Shown: positions 1 through 6,834 of the stretch, piece after piece | Position numbering within the stretch: the stretch's first letter is position 1 | How the letters are laid out: each line of letters starts with the position of its first letter | UHGV virus genome: UHGV-1443059 | Direction: 5' to 3' (one strand) | DNA length: 6,834 bases | Origin: a virus | Program-made: the position numbers and the translations under genes | Notes under the pieces: model-generated | What the model was told of the DNA's origin: nothing | Databases searched by the model: none | Seen by the model: the letters and a program-made list of their open reading frames with translations, nothing else

Positions 1-650
1 ACTATGATCGGCATCGCTCAGTCCGGTTGGTGATTTTGGTTGGTTTGGCGATTGATCAGATCGCACAATCCGGGCTGAGTTCCCTTTCAGTGATCTACTA
101 TTCCGCGCAGCTATTTAGTGGTTCCAGTCTTTCTAAAGGTGATATTCAGTCTGCGATCGAAGGTGCTTCACCCAAAATAGCCAGCGATATTCATGATAAA
201 TTAACGGAGAAAGACACTTCATCAGATGATAAAAAAAATGCCGATGAACAAACCAGGAATAATATAAATCGTCTTGACGATTCCATTAACAATCTTACGC
301 GGGGGGCTGGCCGTTTTGCTGACCCTTCAGGTGGTGATTCTCGTTATGGAAAGGGCGACTCTGAATTAGATGGCGCTTCTACTTTAGCTGATTCTGAATT
401 GGGAATTGAAAAGGATTCTCACGGTGCTTTATGGGAAGCATTTTTAAATAAAGGTGCTATGCTGCCTAATTTACCCAATGGTAACGGCTGCTCTGATTTT
501 ATTATTTTTCCCGGAGAGGTTTATCAGATTGATATTGGTTGCGATAAATTACTGACTATTAAAGATGTTCTTTCATGGGTTTTTTATTGCCTTACGTTCT
601 GGTATGTCTTTACTTCTTTAACTTCATTGCTTCGCAAAGGGGGTGAGTGA
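1..650 (+). CDS. gIII: Gene III minor coat/adsorption protein pIII, C-terminal part only (5' end lies outside the window; reading frame starts at nt 3; stop TGA 648-650)
   Basis: Frame 3 is open from the window edge, so the TTG at 27 in the ORF track is not the real start. The C-terminal ~170 aa align in pattern with the M13 pIII CT domain: paired Cys (GCSDF...IDIGCDK vs M13 ECRPF...SIDCDK) and a C-terminal hydrophobic anchor ending in basic residues (VFYCLTFWYVFTSLTSLLRKGGE vs FAFLLYVATFMYVFSTFANILRNKES). Position directly upstream of gene VI matches Ff gene order. Confidence 0.85.
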   Translation, partial: YDRHRSVRLVILVGLAIDQIAQSGLSSLSVIYYSAQLFSGSSLSKGDIQSAIEGASPKIASDIHDKLTEKDTSSDDKKNADEQTRNNINRLDDSINNLTRGAGRFADPSGGDSRYGKGDSELDGASTLADSELGIEKDSHGALWEAFLNKGAMLPNLPNGNGCSDFIIFPGEVYQIDIGCDKLLTIKDVLSWVFYCLTFWYVFTSLTSLLRKGGE

Positions 651-991
651 TGCCTTTATTATTAGGTATTCCTGCATTGTTGCGTTTTCTTATTGGTCTT
701 GTTCCTTTGTTTATTGGCTATGTGGCGAGTTTTTTAGCTCGACTTGCTACCAGAACAGGATTAATCGCCTTTGCATTGGTCGCATTAATTACAACAACTG
801 TTACGCTTTTAATGCAGTACCTTGCTGAGGTCATGTACAACGGTTTACCTGCTGATTTCTCCCATTTAATGGCGTCTGTACTGCCTGACCATTTTCAGGC
901 GTGTGTTAACGTTATTATGGTTACTCGTATCAGTGTTTTTGTTTTCGATTTAAAACAAAAATTTCTTGATTATGCAAACAGGGTGATTTAA
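650..991 (+). CDS. gVI: Gene VI minor coat protein pVI (113 aa)
   Basis: N-terminus MPLLLGIPALLRFL matches M13 pVI MPVLLGIPLLLRFL; C-terminal FVFDLKQK matches M13 FIFDVKQK; size matches (M13 112 aa). ATG 650 overlaps the gene III stop (TGATG); G-rich SD aaggggg just upstream. ATG 650 preferred over the GTG at 647 from the ORF track. Confidence 0.85.
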   Translation: MPLLLGIPALLRFLIGLVPLFIGYVASFLARLATRTGLIAFALVALITTTVTLLMQYLAEVMYNGLPADFSHLMASVLPDHFQACVNVIMVTRISVFVFDLKQKFLDYANRVI

Positions 992-2086
992 ATGGCGGTT
1001 TATGTAGTAACAGGCAAATTAGGCTCAGGCAAGACACTTGTTAGTGTTTCCAGAATACAGGAAAGACTTGCTAAGGGTTGTCCTGTTGCCACTAATCTTG
1101 ATCTTAAATTGCATAATATGCCTATGGTTGGGCGTTATGCGAAAAAAACGCGCGTTATTCGCATTCCTGACAAGCCTTCATTAAATGATTTACTTGCTAT
1201 TGGTATTGGGAATACATCTTACGATGAATCCCGTAATGGCCTCCTTGTACTTGATGAATGTGGTACTTGGTTTAATTCCCGCTCATGGGGTGATAAAGAC
1301 AGACAACCTGTTATTGACTGGTTTTTACATGCCAGAAAATTAGGCTGGGATATTATATTTTTGATTCAGGATATTTCGATAATGGATAAGCAAGCTCGTC
1401 TGGCGCTTGCTGAGCATGTTGTTTATTGTCGCCGTTCAGATAAATTAAACATTCCTTTTGTTGGCTCCATTATGAATTTGGTTTCAGGAGCGAGATTTTC
1501 TTTACCAAAGGTACACTTTGGCATTGTCAAATATGGTGATAATGTTAATTCAATCACTGTTGATAAATGGATATATACAGGAAAATCTCTTTATTCTGCT
1601 TACAATACCAAACAAGCGTTCACAGATAATTATCCTCATGGCGCATTTTCGCTTTTGCCACCATTTATCACGCACGGTCAATTTTCTGTTCACAGAGGAT
1701 TTAATTATTATATGCGCCTCACTAAAATTTATTTTCGCAAATCGAACCGTCTTATATTAATGCTTTCTTTTTTGGCGCTGGGGCTTGCGTTTGGTTTCTG
1801 GCTCCAGTCTGGAAAGAATGTTGATGAAATCTCAGCTATTAAATCTGCTTATGCTGAACAGGCGAGGGCGGTAACGCCTGATTCGTCCAGTGACTTACCC
1901 CGACTTTCTATTAATTCTTTTTCACAACTTGGCTTTGACGTTTCCGTTACGTTTGTTGATGCAAAAGGTATGAAATATCAGTATTTTGATTTGATTAAAG
2001 ATGGTTATTCCGTTGATATTAAAGATGCCTGTCGTGTTGTTATTAGAAAAGGCCGTTATTTACAGACTGTTACCTGTCAGGAGTAA
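992..2086 (+). CDS. gI: Gene I assembly ATPase pI (Zot-like), 364 aa
   Basis: N-terminus MAVYVVTGKLGSGKTLVSV is near-identical to M13 pI MAVYFVTGKLGSGKTLVSV; Walker A GKLGSGKT and Walker B LLVLDECG present; long blocks such as QPVIDWFLHARKLGWDIIFL are conserved with M13. Starts immediately after the gene VI TAA (989-991). Confidence 0.93.
   Translation: MAVYVVTGKLGSGKTLVSVSRIQERLAKGCPVATNLDLKLHNMPMVGRYAKKTRVIRIPDKPSLNDLLAIGIGNTSYDESRNGLLVLDECGTWFNSRSWGDKDRQPVIDWFLHARKLGWDIIFLIQDISIMDKQARLALAEHVVYCRRSDKLNIPFVGSIMNLVSGARFSLPKVHFGIVKYGDNVNSITVDKWIYTGKSLYSAYNTKQAFTDNYPHGAFSLLPPFITHGQFSVHRGFNYYMRLTKIYFRKSNRLILMLSFLALGLAFGFWLQSGKNVDEISAIKSAYAEQARAVTPDSSSDLPRLSINSFSQLGFDVSVTFVDAKGMKYQYFDLIKDGYSVDIKDACRVVIRKGRYLQTVTCQE
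1712..2086 (+). CDS. gXI: Gene XI (pXI), in-frame internal initiation within gene I giving the C-terminal 124 aa
   Basis: Internal ATG at codon 241 of gene I (MRLTKIYFRK) corresponds to M13 pXI start Met241 (MKLTKIYLKK), immediately before the predicted membrane-spanning segment LILMLSFLALGLAFGFWL. Called by homology of position; expression not demonstrable from sequence. Confidence 0.5.
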   Translation: MRLTKIYFRKSNRLILMLSFLALGLAFGFWLQSGKNVDEISAIKSAYAEQARAVTPDSSSDLPRLSINSFSQLGFDVSVTFVDAKGMKYQYFDLIKDGYSVDIKDACRVVIRKGRYLQTVTCQE

Positions 2087-2093
2087 TATTATT

Positions 2094-3359
2094 ATGCGCT
2101 CTGTTATTGTTGCTTTTTTATTTGCCTATTCATTCTGCGTTTCTGCTGAAACTGTTAATTTAAATAATTCATCTGTTCGCTCATTTGTTCAGTGGTATTC
2201 TTCAAAAACTGGCAAGCCTGTTATTGTTAATCCTGATATTAAAGGAAACGTAACCGTATTTAATGCTGATGTTAATCCAACAAATATTGATGATTTCTTT
2301 AAGTCTGTTCTGAATGCTAACGGTTTTGTCATGCTTTCTGGCAATCCTGCGGTAGTCTCTTTGCCGTCTAAATTACCTTCACAGATGGTTTCGGATTCCG
2401 ATGATTCTGATAACCAGTCTTATGATACTTTTCCTTCTGAGCCATCTTACCAGCCAGTACCTGTGGCGCTTACGGTCAGAAATTTTAAGCTGACAAAAGT
2501 TAGATCGTCCGATGTTCAGCAACTGATTAAAATTTATCTTGATTCTAATGGTGGTGGTAATGTCGTGGATTATCCAGGCAATAACTCGCTGATTGTTTCT
2601 GCGCCTGACGAGCTGCTGCCGGTTCTGTCCGATTTTATCAATTCTGTGGATGTTGCCCGCGATCAGGTTCTCATTCAGTCGCTGATGTTTGAAACCAGCT
2701 TGTCTGATGGCGTTGATTTATCGTTTGCGGCAGGTTCTGCATCCGGTCATAAGGTTGCGGGGGGCTTTAATACTTCTGCACTGGGTAGCGCTCTTTCTAC
2801 GGCGGGCGGTTCTTTTGGTATTTTTGATGGTAACGTGTTGGCGCTGTCTCTGCGTGCTGTCCAGAGTAATTCACGCTCTAAGGTGATTTCAACGCCGCGT
2901 ATTCTTACTCAGTCTGGTCAGACTGGTTACATTTCCGTAGGTAAGAATGTGCCGTTTATCACCGGAAAGGTAACGGGCGAATCTGCCGGGGTAAATAATC
3001 CGTTTCAGACTATCGAGCGTCATGATGTTGGCGTTTCTCTCAAGGTAACGCCTGTTGTCATGGGTAACGGGCAACTAGTTCTGACTATCGACACTCGCGC
3101 TGATTCAATCAGCAATGATGATCAGGCATCCGATATTATTACTAATCAGCGCCAGATTCAGACGACAGTCCAGATTAAGGATGGTCAGACGTTGTTATTG
3201 GGGGGGCTTATCGATTCATCGTTCAGCAATGCCGAGCGTTCAGTTCCAGTTATAAGTAAAATTCCTCTTATAGGCTGGATTTTCAGTAGCAAGGCAGACA
3301 GCAATGAACAGCGTATTATGTATATTTTGCTTACAGCACATATCATTCGTCCACTTTGA
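2094..3359 (+). CDS. gIV: Gene IV outer-membrane secretin pIV (421 aa precursor with signal peptide)
   Basis: Start ATG 2094 preceded by AGGAG (2079-2083); the ORF-track start at 2001 is an upstream in-frame extension overlapping gene I. Signal-peptide-like N-terminus MRSVIVAFLFAYSFCVSA|ET. Extensive similarity to M13 pIV, e.g. VTGESAGVNNPFQTIER, DGQTLLLGGL, SKIPLIGWIFSS versus M13 VTGESANVNNPFQTIER, DGQTLLLGGL, SKIPLIGLLFSS. Confidence 0.93.
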   Translation: MRSVIVAFLFAYSFCVSAETVNLNNSSVRSFVQWYSSKTGKPVIVNPDIKGNVTVFNADVNPTNIDDFFKSVLNANGFVMLSGNPAVVSLPSKLPSQMVSDSDDSDNQSYDTFPSEPSYQPVPVALTVRNFKLTKVRSSDVQQLIKIYLDSNGGGNVVDYPGNNSLIVSAPDELLPVLSDFINSVDVARDQVLIQSLMFETSLSDGVDLSFAAGSASGHKVAGGFNTSALGSALSTAGGSFGIFDGNVLALSLRAVQSNSRSKVISTPRILTQSGQTGYISVGKNVPFITGKVTGESAGVNNPFQTIERHDVGVSLKVTPVVMGNGQLVLTIDTRADSISNDDQASDIITNQRQIQTTVQIKDGQTLLLGGLIDSSFSNAERSVPVISKIPLIGWIFSSKADSNEQRIMYILLTAHIIRPL

Positions 3360-3403
3360 TGGATAGCGGGTAGGTGCGTAAGCCCTGCTCGCTATCCATC
3401 AAA
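3355..3403. repeat. Extended inverted repeat/hairpin overlapping the gene IV stop codon (14-bp perfect arms tttgatggatagcg / cgctatccatcaaa, with further inner pairing and a GTAA-containing loop)
   Basis: Arms 3355-3368 and 3390-3403 are exact reverse complements; inner pairs 3370-3374 with 3384-3388. No U-run follows, so not a canonical intrinsic terminator. By analogy with the Ff intergenic region this is where the packaging-signal hairpin sits. Confidence 0.6.
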
Positions 3404-3428
3404 TGGACATTATTGATTGGGGTAACTA

Positions 3429-3737
3429 ATGGATTCTTATGGGATTTTATCTGCTCTGGCAGAACGAACGATTACAGCGGAAGAAGCAAAAACAATGACA
3501 CTTGCAGCCAGAAGTTCTTCGGCTCAGGTAAATGAAGCATCACTTGCTCTGTTACTGATTGATAATACTCTGGATGCGATCAAAGCAGCTGCCAGTGAAG
3601 GGAAAGGATACACTTTACTTCCTTCTTATGAGATTTCTGTAAAAGCCATTGATTTAGCAGAAGAATTTTTAAGGAAACAATGCGGCTATGTTATTGATAA
3701 CCAGAATGGCGTAAGGACGGTCTATTGGTTTATATGA
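3429..3737 (+). CDS. Hypothetical protein, 102 aa (no recognisable motif; predicted soluble, helical N-terminal half)
   Basis: Intact ORF with ATG at 3429 preceded by GGGGT (3419-3423, 5-nt spacer); ends TGA 3735-3737 followed directly by TAA and a strong hairpin. Not homologous to any Ff protein I recognise. Confidence 0.5.
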   Translation: MDSYGILSALAERTITAEEAKTMTLAARSSSAQVNEASLALLLIDNTLDAIKAAASEGKGYTLLPSYEISVKAIDLAEEFLRKQCGYVIDNQNGVRTVYWFI

Positions 3738-3740
3738 TAA

Positions 3741-3810
3741 CCCCTGACAATGACAAAACTTGCTTTTGTTAGTGTCAGGGGTTGGCCAAGCCGAACAATT
3801 CTGTTTTTTT
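3741..3810 (+). terminator. Strong stem-loop (9 bp + 8 bp stem, 5-nt loop, 3741-3781) followed 22 nt later by a T7 run (3804-3810); candidate transcript end for the 102-aa ORF or a structured phage cis element
   Basis: cccctgaca at 3741-3749 pairs with tgtcagggg at 3773-3781; tgacaaaa at 3751-3758 pairs with ttttgtta at 3764-3771. The U-run is not immediately adjacent, so a terminator assignment is tentative. Confidence 0.35.
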
Positions 3811-3854
3811 AGCGTTATTGCTGATTCGGCGCGGCAGCATTACGAGGAGATAAA

Positions 3855-4088
3855 ATGCAATTTTTCACATCCAGCGATACTGTAATGTTATGTGCGAAGA
3901 CCTGCGATCGCTGTGGTCGCCATGCGAAGACGGTGGTAGATGACATTGAGTTCAATGAGTTTCTGTCTGTTAATCACTTAGCTGGATACGGTTCAATTTT
4001 TGGTGACAGTAATCGCTTAAAACTGGATTTATGCCAACATTGCCTGAAAGACGTCCTGGGCCAGTGGATTACGGTCTGTGACCAATGA
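3855..4088 (+). CDS. Small zinc-ribbon protein, 77 aa, with two CxxC pairs (C17-x2-C20 ... C60-x2-C63)
   Basis: Strong RBS GAGGAG (3844-3849) with 5-nt spacer to ATG 3855. Four Cys arranged as CDRC...CQHC, typical of a Zn-ribbon/treble-clef fold. Sits between the upstream hairpin/T-run and the dif site. Confidence 0.6.
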   Translation: MQFFTSSDTVMLCAKTCDRCGRHAKTVVDDIEFNEFLSVNHLAGYGSIFGDSNRLKLDLCQHCLKDVLGQWITVCDQ

Positions 4089-4126
4089 CGGCACCGGTAA
4101 CGCCAGTTCCCGCCATCCTTACCATT

Positions 4127-4154
4127 GGTGCGCATAATGTATATTATGTTAAAT
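4127..4154. other. dif: dif site (XerC/XerD chromosome-dimer resolution site): GGTGCGCATAA-TGTATA-TTATGTTAAAT, 28/28 identical to the E. coli chromosomal dif consensus
   Basis: Exact match read directly from the sequence to the well-known E. coli dif 28-mer (XerC arm, 6-bp central region, XerD arm). XerC arm faces the phage genes, XerD arm faces the recombinase genes. Confidence 0.9.
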
Positions 4155-4245
4155 TTAGTCCGTCGGTCATTTAGTTCATAACCGGCCACAGGATACGATT
4201 AATCATACACTTACCTACCCCTCTATCTTCTTCTTGCAGGACGTT

Positions 4246-5700
4246 ATGTTTGTCGGTTACTTTGTTCATATCCACACCATTGATAAGGTTAAGTGCCGCG
4301 TGTTCATACTTACACAACTCAATATCAACCAACGGCAGCGTTTATGGGCACTGATGGATACTCACACGCGCCAGCCGCTTTTATATCCGTTAATATATCT
4401 TATCGACCATCTTGCTTTGCGTTCATCAGCCACGCAATCCGCTTCACTTCAAGCGCTCAAGTTTTTCTATGAATTCTGGCACCAGAAACATGGTGTGACT
4501 TTTTGCTTCAGTTTCTATTCCTCGAACCACAATCCATTGATTGCCATTGATGAACTTACAGCCTTTTTTCATTATCTGGAAAATACGCATTTATATGTAC
4601 CAGCGTTAACCATAAGGTCTACTACGCAGACCACGCCTCAACGTTGTACAAATATCAGGCATGTACATTCGGTTATTCGTTTTATCAGATATTTGATTAA
4701 CACGTATATCTCGCCGAGATATATAGATGGCACGCCTAAAGAGCTTACACGACTTGCCACGCAGTTAACGGGACGTTTATCGATACATAAGGCAGAATTC
4801 CGTACTCTTACCCATTCTCGTCAGATGAACAATGGCACGACCCATAAACGCTTTCGAAGTCTGACTGCTGAGATGGTCATGGCTTTTTACCAAATCATTA
4901 CACCCGGTTCAATTTCAAAGAAAAACCCACTCAATCCCTTCCCCGCTGGTGAAATCCAGCTACGTAATTTTCTGATTTGCAGATTGCTTTTAAATTACGG
5001 ATTGCGTGTCAGTGAATTACTGCTTTTGGAGTGTCATTCGATCAAACCAAATCTCCGAGGGGATCAGTTCAGCCTGATTGTGACCACAGTAGATGACGAC
5101 GTTTCGGATCAACGAAAAAGATTGCCTTCATTAAAAAATGTTTATGCAAACCGGGTGCTGGCATTAGATAAACTGGACTTTCATTTTCTAAATATATATA
5201 TCCATAAAATCCGCCCTCAAGCCTCCCATAGTTTTCTGTTCACTTCCACCCAAAGACTACATCCGCCACTGTCATACCATGCAGTCTATGATATCTTTAC
5301 CCGTATTGATGACATTATGAGTGTGCAGTATCCTGAATATAAAAAAGATGAATATTATGATGCCATTGAAAGCATCTCGCCTCATATAACGCGGCATACT
5401 TGGGCTTATTTAACACTTCAACGTATTTATCGTGATAAACTTCAAAAAATTAAGGCCAACTCACACTTGGCAGCCATAGACTTTTCTATCGTTGGATTGA
5501 TGGATGAAGCCAAGGATGAATTACGGCTACTTGGCGGTTGGAGTCACAATAGCCATATGCCTGATCTTTACGCTAAAAGATTTCTATCTCAGCAGGCTAA
5601 TACGGCCAATCTTCAGCGAATTGTGATTGATAACGAAGCCCTGAAATCAACCTTTTCCCATGTATGCGATGAATGGAGTGCATATGAGTCGAATCAATAA
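4246..5700 (+). CDS. Tyrosine recombinase (phage-integrase family) with ~250-aa N-terminal extension; start codon uncertain (ATG 4246 chosen; TTG 4234 and ATG 4354 are alternatives)
   Basis: Catalytic-domain motifs are present in order: GLRVSEL (box I Arg, nt 5005-5007), HITRH (HxxR-H), LLGGWSH, and DLYAK (catalytic Tyr, nt 5569-5571); compare XerD GLRVSEL, HVLRH, LLGHSDL...IYTH. Confidence 0.88.
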   Translation: MFVGYFVHIHTIDKVKCRVFILTQLNINQRQRLWALMDTHTRQPLLYPLIYLIDHLALRSSATQSASLQALKFFYEFWHQKHGVTFCFSFYSSNHNPLIAIDELTAFFHYLENTHLYVPALTIRSTTQTTPQRCTNIRHVHSVIRFIRYLINTYISPRYIDGTPKELTRLATQLTGRLSIHKAEFRTLTHSRQMNNGTTHKRFRSLTAEMVMAFYQIITPGSISKKNPLNPFPAGEIQLRNFLICRLLLNYGLRVSELLLLECHSIKPNLRGDQFSLIVTTVDDDVSDQRKRLPSLKNVYANRVLALDKLDFHFLNIYIHKIRPQASHSFLFTSTQRLHPPLSYHAVYDIFTRIDDIMSVQYPEYKKDEYYDAIESISPHITRHTWAYLTLQRIYRDKLQKIKANSHLAAIDFSIVGLMDEAKDELRLLGGWSHNSHMPDLYAKRFLSQQANTANLQRIVIDNEALKSTFSHVCDEWSAYESNQ

Positions 5701-6834
5701 ACAGTTAAATGCGTCGAACAGCAACATTTACACACCTGTATTTGTTGAGAGTATTTTAAAGGTTAATATACCAGTTAGTATTTATCTTAAATCGGCAGAT
5801 CATTTTGATGACAAATATATCAGCTCAACAAGTGACAGTTGGGTATTCGATTATTCAGGAAGCCGCTGCTATGCCCACTTTCGTCAGGATAAAATCAGCA
5901 ACCAATTAATCAAATATATTTGCTTCCATTATGCATCTGCCAAGTGTCCAGCTCAGGTTCCTGGGGTACTCCATGCGTGGTCTTTGGCAACTGATCATTG
6001 CATAAGCAAATCTGCTTTCACTTTTACGGTGTTGAAAGATTACCTCGAAACTCAGGAAATTAAACCTCAATATTTCTACTTTATCATTTTCGGCCTAAAA
6101 ATCCTCTGTACCGAAGCATTCCCTGGTTTTACCCTCGAAGATTATGAAGACCTCGAATTCATCCCTCGCCCGCACTCCCATGACTGGGGAATCTATCAGG
6201 AAATTGATCATGTTCTGGATCCCCTCGAAAAAAACATGATCAGTAAAGGCTTGTTTGAAATGGCTGTGGCGATTCGGTATGGCGAAAACTACAGTCTGAA
6301 CACCATGCGAGATGCAGTAATTCTGGGACTGACGTATGTCACCGGTGCCCGACCGGTACAACTGGCCAAGCTGGCGGTAAAAGATTTACGTATTGATACC
6401 CGAAACTCCGAAACCGGATTAATACGATATAGCTTACTCCTTCCTTACGCCAAACAGCGGCACGTAACGACTGAACGTCTGTTTTTGGCGATTCCAGCTG
6501 AAATCGGCGCGTTGATTAGGCACTATATCGAGCGAGCGCAACTAAAACCTGATGGCAAGCTATTTGAATTTAGTAACTCTGCACCGTTTAATGTGTCCAG
6601 AGCGATTAACAAGGCCTTCCTCTGTTTCAGTCCGCCAGATTATCAGGCAGCCGTAAAGCGTGGCGAAGCGGCTTTGCCAACCATTACCCCGACCGACTTG
6701 CGCCACAACGTGGGGCATTCACTGGCTATGCAAGGGGTCAGCGCCGAGGAAATTGCGCATATTCTGGGACATAGCTCCCTTACTGTTGCCAAGTATTACA
6801 TTCTGGCGACGCCTGCACTGGCACTGATTCGAGC
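5684..6834 (+). CDS. Second tyrosine recombinase (phage-integrase family), 3' end outside the window; at least 383 aa
   Basis: Frame 2 is open from ATG 5684 to the window end (translated by hand, no stops). Motifs: TGARPVQLAKL (box I Arg), PYAKQRH (Lys), TDLRH (box II Arg-His), ILGHSSLTVAKYY (His plus catalytic Tyr). Start overlaps the upstream recombinase gene by 17 nt (stop TAA 5698-5700). Confidence 0.85.
   Translation, partial: MSRINKQLNASNSNIYTPVFVESILKVNIPVSIYLKSADHFDDKYISSTSDSWVFDYSGSRCYAHFRQDKISNQLIKYICFHYASAKCPAQVPGVLHAWSLATDHCISKSAFTFTVLKDYLETQEIKPQYFYFIIFGLKILCTEAFPGFTLEDYEDLEFIPRPHSHDWGIYQEIDHVLDPLEKNMISKGLFEMAVAIRYGENYSLNTMRDAVILGLTYVTGARPVQLAKLAVKDLRIDTRNSETGLIRYSLLLPYAKQRHVTTERLFLAIPAEIGALIRHYIERAQLKPDGKLFEFSNSAPFNVSRAINKAFLCFSPPDYQAAVKRGEAALPTITPTDLRHNVGHSLAMQGVSAEEIAHILGHSSLTVAKYYILATPALALIR

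Follow-up and report, generated by a model that had tools for sequence, protein, structure and literature searches.

The locus analysed here raises the question of why an intact dif site should stand at the seam between genes of a filamentous phage and DNA of a different kind. It lies in a 6,834-nucleotide stretch of the UHGV virus genome UHGV-1443059 (this whole stretch is called the window in the following), where a preliminary description had reported a dif sequence at 4127-4154 and had taken it for the right end of a prophage integrated through XerC and XerD, recombinases of the host. The explanation at which we arrive has two parts, a filamentous prophage to the left of dif and an island with three recombinase genes to the right of it. 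The 28-mer would accordingly be the host chromosome-dimer resolution site and, at the same time, the junction common to two different mobile elements, and for this two-part explanation as a whole we estimate a probability of about 0.85 from comparison with related genomes.

The dif site and its surroundings

The site consists of three parts:

4127-4137, + strand: XerC-binding arm of dif; its origin is ambiguous, since the phage attP and the chromosomal dif are identical here
4138-4143, + strand: dif central region TGTATA, the last two bases (TA) coming from the pre-existing dif
4144-4154, + strand: XerD-binding arm TTATGTTAAAT, which also serves the three-recombinase island as its left-hand imperfect repeat in direct orientation (attL)

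The sequence GGTGCGCATAATGTATATTATGTTAAAT is found as a single copy on the + strand with 0 mismatches to the E. coli dif, exactly as first described, and 200 dinucleotide-preserving shuffles produced no dif match even when up to three mismatches were allowed. Its layout is 11-6-11, GGTGCGCATAA-TGTATA-TTATGTTAAAT. The distance to dif is 38 nt from the stop codon of the last open reading frame (ORF) of the phage module (3855-4088) and 768 nt from that of the secretin gene IV (2094-3359). The identical 28-mer is carried by the hipBA-proximal terminus locus of K-12, and in KFu015, UM146, AR_0085, VE-T9, GF66.2 and K-12 dif is single within 14-50 kb and placed after hipBA; UM146 and KFu015 have no other such site within 28-47 kb. 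From these relatives we infer that the dif of the window's own genome is also situated at the hipBA terminus locus. K-12, UM146 and the window diverge from one another directly after the XerD arm, and the distal side of dif is in the window not chromosome but a second mobile element.

The filamentous prophage to the left of dif

Many E. coli chromosomes have a hipA-proximal segment with 99.4-100% identity to positions 116-4154 of the window, and with few exceptions the prophage matches stop at 4154-4157, the end of dif. In UM146 and KFu015 a complete filamentous prophage occupies the interval between hipA and dif, ending in a perfect dif at attR, and the window segment is its right part. This is the arrangement that was proposed for Xer-mediated integration in the preliminary description, which had also predicted a second, degenerate dif-like junction with a conserved XerC arm and an exchange on the XerC side. 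KFu015 (98% coverage of the window, 99.8% identity) carries three prophage copies in tandem, each of 7,974 bp, and both its attL and its two inter-copy junctions read GGTGCGCATAA-TGTACGACTCG-TTATGTTGAAA. The attL hybrid thus has the XerC arm and TGTA in common with dif and diverges beyond, and because the common part of phage site and dif is confined to these bases, the exchange is placed at the XerC side. Comparison of attL, attP and attR shows that attP and dif share the 15 nt GGTGCGCATAATGTA, so that the phage crossover would lie within them. Phage-free relatives agree with this picture: if the DNA at 3360-4126 had belonged to the chromosome it should be found beside dif there as well, but in K-12, AR_0085, VE-T9 and GF66.2 hipA is joined straight to dif without it, and the prophage reading stands.

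No recombinase or integrase gene is present in the annotated prophages of UM146 and KFu015. When folded in silico as single-stranded DNA, the inter-copy attP region forms a forked hairpin of -30.7 kcal/mol (z = -6.5), in which the dif-like site pairs with an inverted second site through the XerC and XerD arms and the spacer is left unpaired. A phage of this kind, having no integrase, would fold the two inverted dif-like sites of its single-stranded (+) genome into such a forked hairpin, host XerC would exchange one strand pair with dif within GGTGCGCATAA-TGTA, and replication would fix the product, leaving a non-functional hybrid site on the left and a rebuilt, perfect dif on the right. Whereas the sequence signatures were observed here, the enzymology (XerC exchange and hairpin substrate) is extrapolated from work on CTXphi and YpfPhi.

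[quoted passage not shown] YpfPhi and the CUS-1 phage of E. coli K1, which are 99% identical, integrate at dif, rebuild an intact dif at the 3' end, have an imperfect dif between copies and form tandem arrays (PMC4266046; PMC2731167), and two function-less ORFs adjoin their attR (PMC4266046). Like CUS-1 (E. coli O18:K1:H7) and YpfPhi (Yersinia pestis), the present prophage combines inovirus genes, a Zot-type gene I, a secretin and the lack of an integrase with a dif beside hipBA, and it shares with them the intact 3' dif, the imperfect inter-copy dif, the tandem copies and an inverted pair of XerC/XerD sites able to fold into a hairpin, which matches the CTXphi-type attP(+) geometry proposed for YpfPhi. 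It differs from them in that the copy in the window has ISEc33 in gene III, and in that its right neighbour is a mobile element and not chromosome. The suggestion that a dif-integrated phage with a gene IV would be notable has to be given up, as integration at dif is already published for CUS-1 and YpfPhi, both of them inoviruses that have a secretion gene (PMC4266046, PMC2731167).

The phage part of the window contains the following features:

1-117, + strand: right end of the IS630-family insertion sequence ISEc33, at the TA of CTAG in phage gene III (ISEc33 matches)
118-650, + strand: 3' part of gene III (attachment protein pIII, puvA homologue), cut by the insertion sequence; the C-terminal ~177 aa are identical to the annotated "attachment protein" of KFu015 and UM146
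647-991, + strand: gene VI-like minor coat protein (DUF5455; Pfam PF17537, E = 6.7e-9; DUF5455 also in related genomes)
992-2086, + strand: gene I, Zot-type assembly ATPase (Pfam Zot PF05707, E = 6e-41)
2094-3359, + strand: gene IV secretin (Pfam Secretin E = 6e-43, with N0 and Secretin_N domains)
3429-3737, + strand: function-less ORF of 102 aa, positional counterpart of the YPO2280a-type ORF at attR
3855-4088, + strand: function-less CxxC...CxxC ORF of 77 aa, positional counterpart of the YPO2281-type ORF

The annotated gene order of the prophages in UM146 and KFu015 is gII/X, gV (DNA-binding), gVII, gVIII (major coat), gIII, gVI (DUF5455), gI/Zot, gIV (secretin) and two hypothetical genes. 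An intergenic region and gene II of the Ff type had been expected after gene IV; the two small ORFs stand there instead, and neither found a match in Pfam and family searches. Over 190 nt, the DNA of gene IV is about 80% identical to that of its counterpart in the IKe and PEar phages, and the phage proteins have exact matches on at least 1,000 contigs of E. coli, Salmonella and Klebsiella. The first ~120 positions of the window match ISEc33 copies in about 1,300 E. coli genomes with up to 100% identity, while intact prophages have at the insertion point a (GGGES)n linker ending ...GGCTCTAGTGGTTCC; an alternative reading of positions 1-115 as a variant gene III was rejected, as they are the end of ISEc33. 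Because ISEc33 sits in gene III, the copy in the window is, to judge from its sequence, defective and without an intact attachment protein.

A few further observations concern the prophage. Between the two small ORFs (3742-3782) there is a perfect 9-bp inverted repeat, CCCCTGACA ... TGTCAGGGG, which is possibly a terminator or an operator. The attL-proximal module varies between strains, with a death-on-curing family toxin gene in KFu015 (L001, 194-1263) and three small ORFs in UM146 (L002, 7723-9199), one of which encodes a putative zinc-binding protein; these variable ORFs echo those reported for CUS-1 versus YpfPhi. Just to the left of attL in UM146 (L002, 7400-7625) the sequence has many N, yet can be read as phage right-end sequence, and hipA is annotated as truncated beside this N-rich stretch, which suggests a collapsed or partial extra prophage copy.

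The three-recombinase island to the right of dif

For the element on the other side of dif we propose that a widespread and apparently undescribed GInt/SE-type three-recombinase subfamily (SE, strand-biased circularizing integrative element) has its attachment site in the XerD arm, both that of dif and that of the multimer-resolution sites on plasmids, and inserts at the outer edge so that dif stays functional; we would give this proposal an even chance of being right. The island part of the window comprises:

4155-4299, + strand: left terminal region of the GInt/SE-like island; TTCAT, a motif conserved in the family, occupies 4175-4179 and follows the XerD arm by 20 nt
4300-5700, + strand: recombinase A, a GinA/IntA analogue of 466 aa and divergent member of the tyrosine recombinases (Pfam Phage_integrase E = 1e-4)
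5684-6834, + strand: recombinase B, a tyrosine recombinase and GinB analogue, N-terminal 383 of 516 aa, running off the window (Pfam Phage_integrase E = 1e-10)

At a coverage of at least 80%, the DNA at 4156-6834 is present in 118 E. coli genomes and in 20 plasmids, which come from Klebsiella, Salmonella, Citrobacter and E. coli; position 4156 is the start of every match in E. coli genomes and plasmids. KFu015 is the only genome out of 5,426 that has island and phage together; in AR_0085, VE-T9 and GF66.2 the island follows directly after hipA-dif without any phage. The observed arrangement could have been reached with either element arriving first. On two plasmids the island follows Xer-type sites that begin GGTGCGTGTAA-TCATTG and TGTACGCATAA-TCTATC, with the XerD arm unchanged.

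The association with Xer sites extends well beyond E. coli. An unbiased scan, in which aligned homologues of recombinase A (37-100% identity) were run against a single genome of each species, yielded 57 loci, 52 of which had usable upstream DNA, and a complete Xer site was found upstream of the recombinase gene in 41 of these 52, ending 82-271 nt (mostly 124-177 nt) before the gene. At all 41 loci the XerD arm is proximal to the island and equals TTATGTTAAAT, and the spacer is TGTATA at 35 of them. The XerC arm follows the host taxon, being GGTGCGCATAA or AGTGCGCATAA in Enterobacterales and ATTTCG(T/C)ATAA in Acinetobacter, and Psychrobacter, Moraxella, Shewanella and Rheinheimera have further variants. 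Beyond the XerD arm the sequence follows the lineage of the element, with TTCAT at +20 nt in 36 loci and at +21 in three. The junction thus falls at the same nucleotide in 41 loci of at least eight genera. A copy in Y. intermedia near the expected terminus has the same arrangement; comparison of the Y. intermedia homologue with the published SE-YinFD358 was uninformative, as strain and position are different. Apart from one group of Acinetobacter loci, to which we return below, the loci without a Xer site are on contigs that are too short.

Two loci from the scan deserve mention in their own right. On a contig labelled Chryseobacterium sp. 18061 (L009), recombinase A has 96% identity to that of the window, and the dif site is a variant of the E. 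coli type, GGTGCGCGTAA...; the contig is probably an enterobacterial contaminant in a Bacteroidota assembly. In Acinetobacter johnsonii (L024, 616-16030) an array consists of a true dif, an unrelated element of ~7.2 kb, a hybrid Xer-like site TGTCGCATAAC-GTAATT-TTATGTTAAAT, a family island and a repeat of the post-dif sequence, which suggests stacking with another kind of dif-associated element.

A megablast search of plasmids with the right end had no match, and blastn was used for it. In all, seven elements yielded nine right junctions, eight reading (A)ACATAAG-TTAAAT and one, from Enterobacter wuhouensis (L013), reading CATAAG-TTATGTTAAAT. An (A/G)TGAAC motif lies about 16 nt inside most right ends and is absent in the wuhouensis element, the last ~100 nt of the island are AT-rich, and the right junctions have neither a XerC-like arm nor a spacer. 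The island is thereby flanked by the imperfect repeats TTATGTTAAAT and ATAAGTTAAAT, which contain the 7-bp perfect repeat GTTAAAT. Islands of the family extend over 1989-19506 in L006 and over 1966-13045 in L065, and a compact, complete island of about 7.8 kb is found in E. wuhouensis (L013, 7847-15631). Beyond the right end of the window's island we found the exact K-12 dif flank in GF66.2, a UM146-type flank in VE-T9 and the left end of another family island in E. coli LR536431. In the latter (L066, about 20225-21900) the islands are in tandem, the first right end …CATAAGTTAAAT abutting the second left end, and the second island has its own integrase gene.

Empty and occupied sites could be compared on a chromosome and on a plasmid. 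On the chromosome, K-12 versus GF66.2 shows a precise insertion at the outer edge of the XerD arm. In a relative on an IncHI2 plasmid attL is AGTACATATAA-CAAAGA-TTATGTTAAAT and attR is ...CTCAAC-ATAAGTTAAAT, and the empty site reconstructed from these with a single XerD arm matched 627 plasmids without interruption (coverage of at least 80%), with 100% identity over 411 nt among the top matches listed. The inner four bases of the right repeat are ATAA, and not TTAT, in eight of the nine right junctions and next to at least four different flanks, including those of K-12 and IncHI2. Because these four bases are element-derived in several independent contexts, the crossover is placed in or after GTTAAAT; judged by these junctions, it must lie outside the spacer cleaved by XerCD, at the outer end of the XerD arm. 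The idea that the island itself donates the XerD arm through spacer exchange, in the manner of an IMEX or of the SE "motif C", was rejected, since right junctions and empty sites show ATAA for TTAT. The shared TTAAAT is a candidate 6-bp spacer of the SE type, and the reverse complement of the right end starts with the XerD-arm-like TTATGTTGAG; the inverted repeat is weak overall. An inverted copy of the island left end was not found within 20 kb in four loci, where the right ends have been destroyed by insertion sequences.

The flank to the right of dif in UM146 (L002, 16040-16150) was also compared with the left ends of family islands (L067, L016, L012) and resembles them with z = 6-12 versus shuffles, without any recombinase genes, while the K-12 flank has no such similarity (z about 0 versus shuffles). 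Many E. coli strains therefore appear to carry a relic of an island beside dif, with K-12 as the empty state.

As regards the recombination module, R236, H362-x-x-R365-H366 and Y424 of recombinase A are invariant across 24 homologues. Related genomes show that the third gene of the island encodes a 788-aa protein C with GFRSIE, HIPRHN and QNQHY motifs and the fourth a 144-aa protein D with a coiled-coil C-terminus. Proteins A, B and C were compared with their positional counterparts in the four-gene locus of ECONIH4, which the SE survey counts among the ginC/ginD orthologues, and gave 6e-11 (A-A2), 6e-11 (B-B2) and 5e-12 (C-C2); that locus has no Xer site upstream. Because A, B and C are each distantly but specifically homologous to a positional counterpart, the island is, on this sequence evidence, GInt/SE-like in architecture and distantly so in sequence, and forms a separate subfamily.

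The likeness to GInt (PMC5385486) includes a 5' operon of three tyrosine-recombinase-like genes and a small protein with a coiled-coil C-terminus, cargo after the fourth gene, an AT-rich 3' end and imperfect flanking direct repeats, of about 11 nt in the island (the GInt criterion is 10-17 nt). The distant homology is gene for gene to a locus among the ginC/ginD orthologues, the locus compared being that of ECONIH4. In contrast to GInt, which targets an ABC-transporter or ssb gene and resides mainly in Pseudomonas, the island targets the XerD arm of dif and plasmid Xer sites and is found in Enterobacterales and Moraxellaceae; its identity to the compared GInt-type proteins is only 21-27%, and its fourth protein is not detectably similar. 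The island resembles SEs in several ways: its recombination module has four genes and lies at the left end, the AT-rich TTAAAT is a candidate for a 6-bp crossover, the target site is specific, chromosomes as well as conjugative plasmids carry it, and its cargo comprises resistance or defence genes. The second protein of the island keeps candidate catalytic R, RH, H and Y residues (by inspection), which the SE protein Tfp (intA-tfp-intB-srap) does not have; the terminal inverted repeats of the island are weak, whereas SEs have imperfect ones of 13-19 bp around a 6-bp spacer.

As a family targeting the XerD arm the islands are well supported by comparison, and they may be new. The SE and GInt papers report other targets, which have no dif-like structure; the available part of the published ginC/ginD list does not contain the island, and the portions of the SE and GInt supplements that could be searched contain neither its accessions nor the arm sequence. 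Literature on GInt or SE together with Xer yielded nothing relevant, subscription journals not being covered, so that a prior description is possible. Carnoy and Roten, who found that about 14% of dif sites have integrase or transposase genes nearby, defined no family (PMC2731167).

The cargo of the islands is rich in anti-phage defence genes (L006, 9961-16294; L004, 29026-34957; L068, 9830-13067; L067, 9959-19404). Examples are a CBASS-like set (nucleotidyltransferase, ThiF/E1, JAB and a SAVED or HNH effector), restriction endonucleases and a retron with PtuAB; a 2,021-aa ATPase with a DEAD/DEAH helicase and chromate transporter genes are also present.

Mechanism, alternatives and significance

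According to the proposed mechanism, the XerD-binding arm, in dif or in a plasmid Xer site, would receive the island exactly at its outer edge, with dif left intact on the left and the partial arm copy ATAAGTTAAAT on the right. The circular form of the island is predicted to have the junction ...CTCAACATAAGTTAAATTTAGTCCGTCGG... and the empty site to be dif followed by CATGTCTGAG. Because the crossover is placed outside the spacer where XerC and XerD cut, integration is most likely performed by the island's own recombinases.

A first alternative is a hybrid mechanism, in which host XerD bound to its arm would act as partner or landing pad for an adjacent recombinase of the island. The nearest mechanistic precedent is the XerC-like recombinase borne on Tn6022, which acts with A. 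baumannii XerD at a hybrid site (PMC11014353); like the island, that system joins an element-encoded tyrosine recombinase to a perfect XerD half-site. It also fits that all 41 occupied sites have the same XerD arm while differing in XerC arm and spacer and showing no conservation of the target's right flank. However, the XerD arm is nearly universal in these taxa, so that its invariance cannot separate recognition of the DNA from recognition of the protein, XerD cuts at the border between spacer and XerD arm and not at the outer end of the arm, and the element-borne copy ATAAGTTAAAT is altered at inner arm positions. The Tn6022 system moreover has a single Xer-like recombinase, a hybrid site and a 6-bp spacer and serves resolution or rearrangement, whereas the island has a four-gene integration module outside the arm. 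We consider such a participation of XerD unlikely.

The island could also be an IMEX, so that XerC and XerD of the host would integrate a circle with a dif-like attP, as in the gonococcal genetic island, and the island's own recombinases would serve otherwise. The island does resemble the gonococcal genetic island and the integrase-less dif IMEXs in its large size, in its position at dif and in the degenerate dif-like repeat that closes its other end. A Xer site is always found directly next to it; the plasmid sites differ in XerC arm and spacer but keep the XerD arm, which at first sight looks like spacer exchange, and CATAAG with the perfect XerD arm at the right junction of L013 resembles a 6-bp spacer followed by that arm. 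Against this, those elements use XerCD and have both a XerC and a XerD arm in attP, whereas the right repeat of the island is without XerC arm or spacer; ATAA replaces TTAT in eight of nine right junctions while empty sites carry a single TTATGTTAAAT, which means that the exchange took place to the right of those bases; and known dif-targeting elements have been described as lacking an integrase (PMC12715192), whereas the island keeps three recombinases with conserved catalytic residues. An IMEX mode of integration is therefore rather improbable.

That the position next to dif merely reflects a permissive, gene-poor terminus or homologous exchange of flanks might be suggested by the highly variable and IS-rich right flank of dif among E. 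coli strains and by the mobility genes noted near about a quarter of dif sites by Carnoy and Roten (PMC2731167), but is very hard to reconcile with a junction at one nucleotide throughout the 41 loci, with insertion on plasmids, where the Xer sites belong to unrelated backbones and the empty site agrees base for base, and with conserved subterminal motifs at fixed distances. Still more remote is a chance adjacency of phage module and dif, or an origin of the window from a circular replicative form or plasmid: only one junction lies within the window, but the DNA to the right of dif is not phage, KFu015 has the same arrangement in its chromosome between hipA and the island, and attL and inter-copy junctions are hybrid as predicted.

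Some points nevertheless weigh against the explanation of dif as the junction between prophage and island. The window reaches neither the left end of the prophage nor hipA, and because it stops short of that end, chromosomal location and attL had to be derived from KFu015 and other genomes. The prophage was matched to CUS-1 and YpfPhi by their published description (gene order, two attR-proximal ORFs, tandem repeats). Since the right-hand island is also found on plasmids, a plasmid origin of the window is formally possible; those plasmid sites differ in XerC arms and spacers. As for the island, the crossover is placed within bounds and not at an exact position, and the right junction of L013 has the full, perfect XerD arm, by which it differs in 5 nt (TTATG) from the remaining eight. 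A Xer site is missing from nine or ten Acinetobacter loci, all belonging to one lineage of truncated and decayed relics whose outer junction has been replaced, and the similarity of protein D to D2, the protein in the GinD position of ECONIH4, is not significant.

The prophage finding as originally stated adds nothing new, CUS-1/YpfPhi-type phages at dif being textbook IMEXs, and most of the residual interest lies in the neighbouring island. If the proposed attachment at the XerD arm is correct, it would explain why the right flank of dif varies among strains, K-12 being empty, others having a relic of the UM146 type and others again intact islands or tandem arrays. The module would offer a tractable system for the study of target choice by GInt/SE-type elements and of a possible involvement of XerD. 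It would also mean that integrase-less elements borrowing XerCD are not alone in targeting dif, and that islands with recombinases of their own do so too, addressing the most conserved half of the site without damaging it. Such a site would be a universal safe harbour on chromosomes and plasmids for islands that often carry anti-phage defence cargo and that would be stacked there with XerCD-dependent phages like CUS-1, and it would constitute a predictable integration hot-spot for defence and resistance genes across Enterobacterales and Moraxellaceae, on chromosomes as well as on conjugative plasmids.

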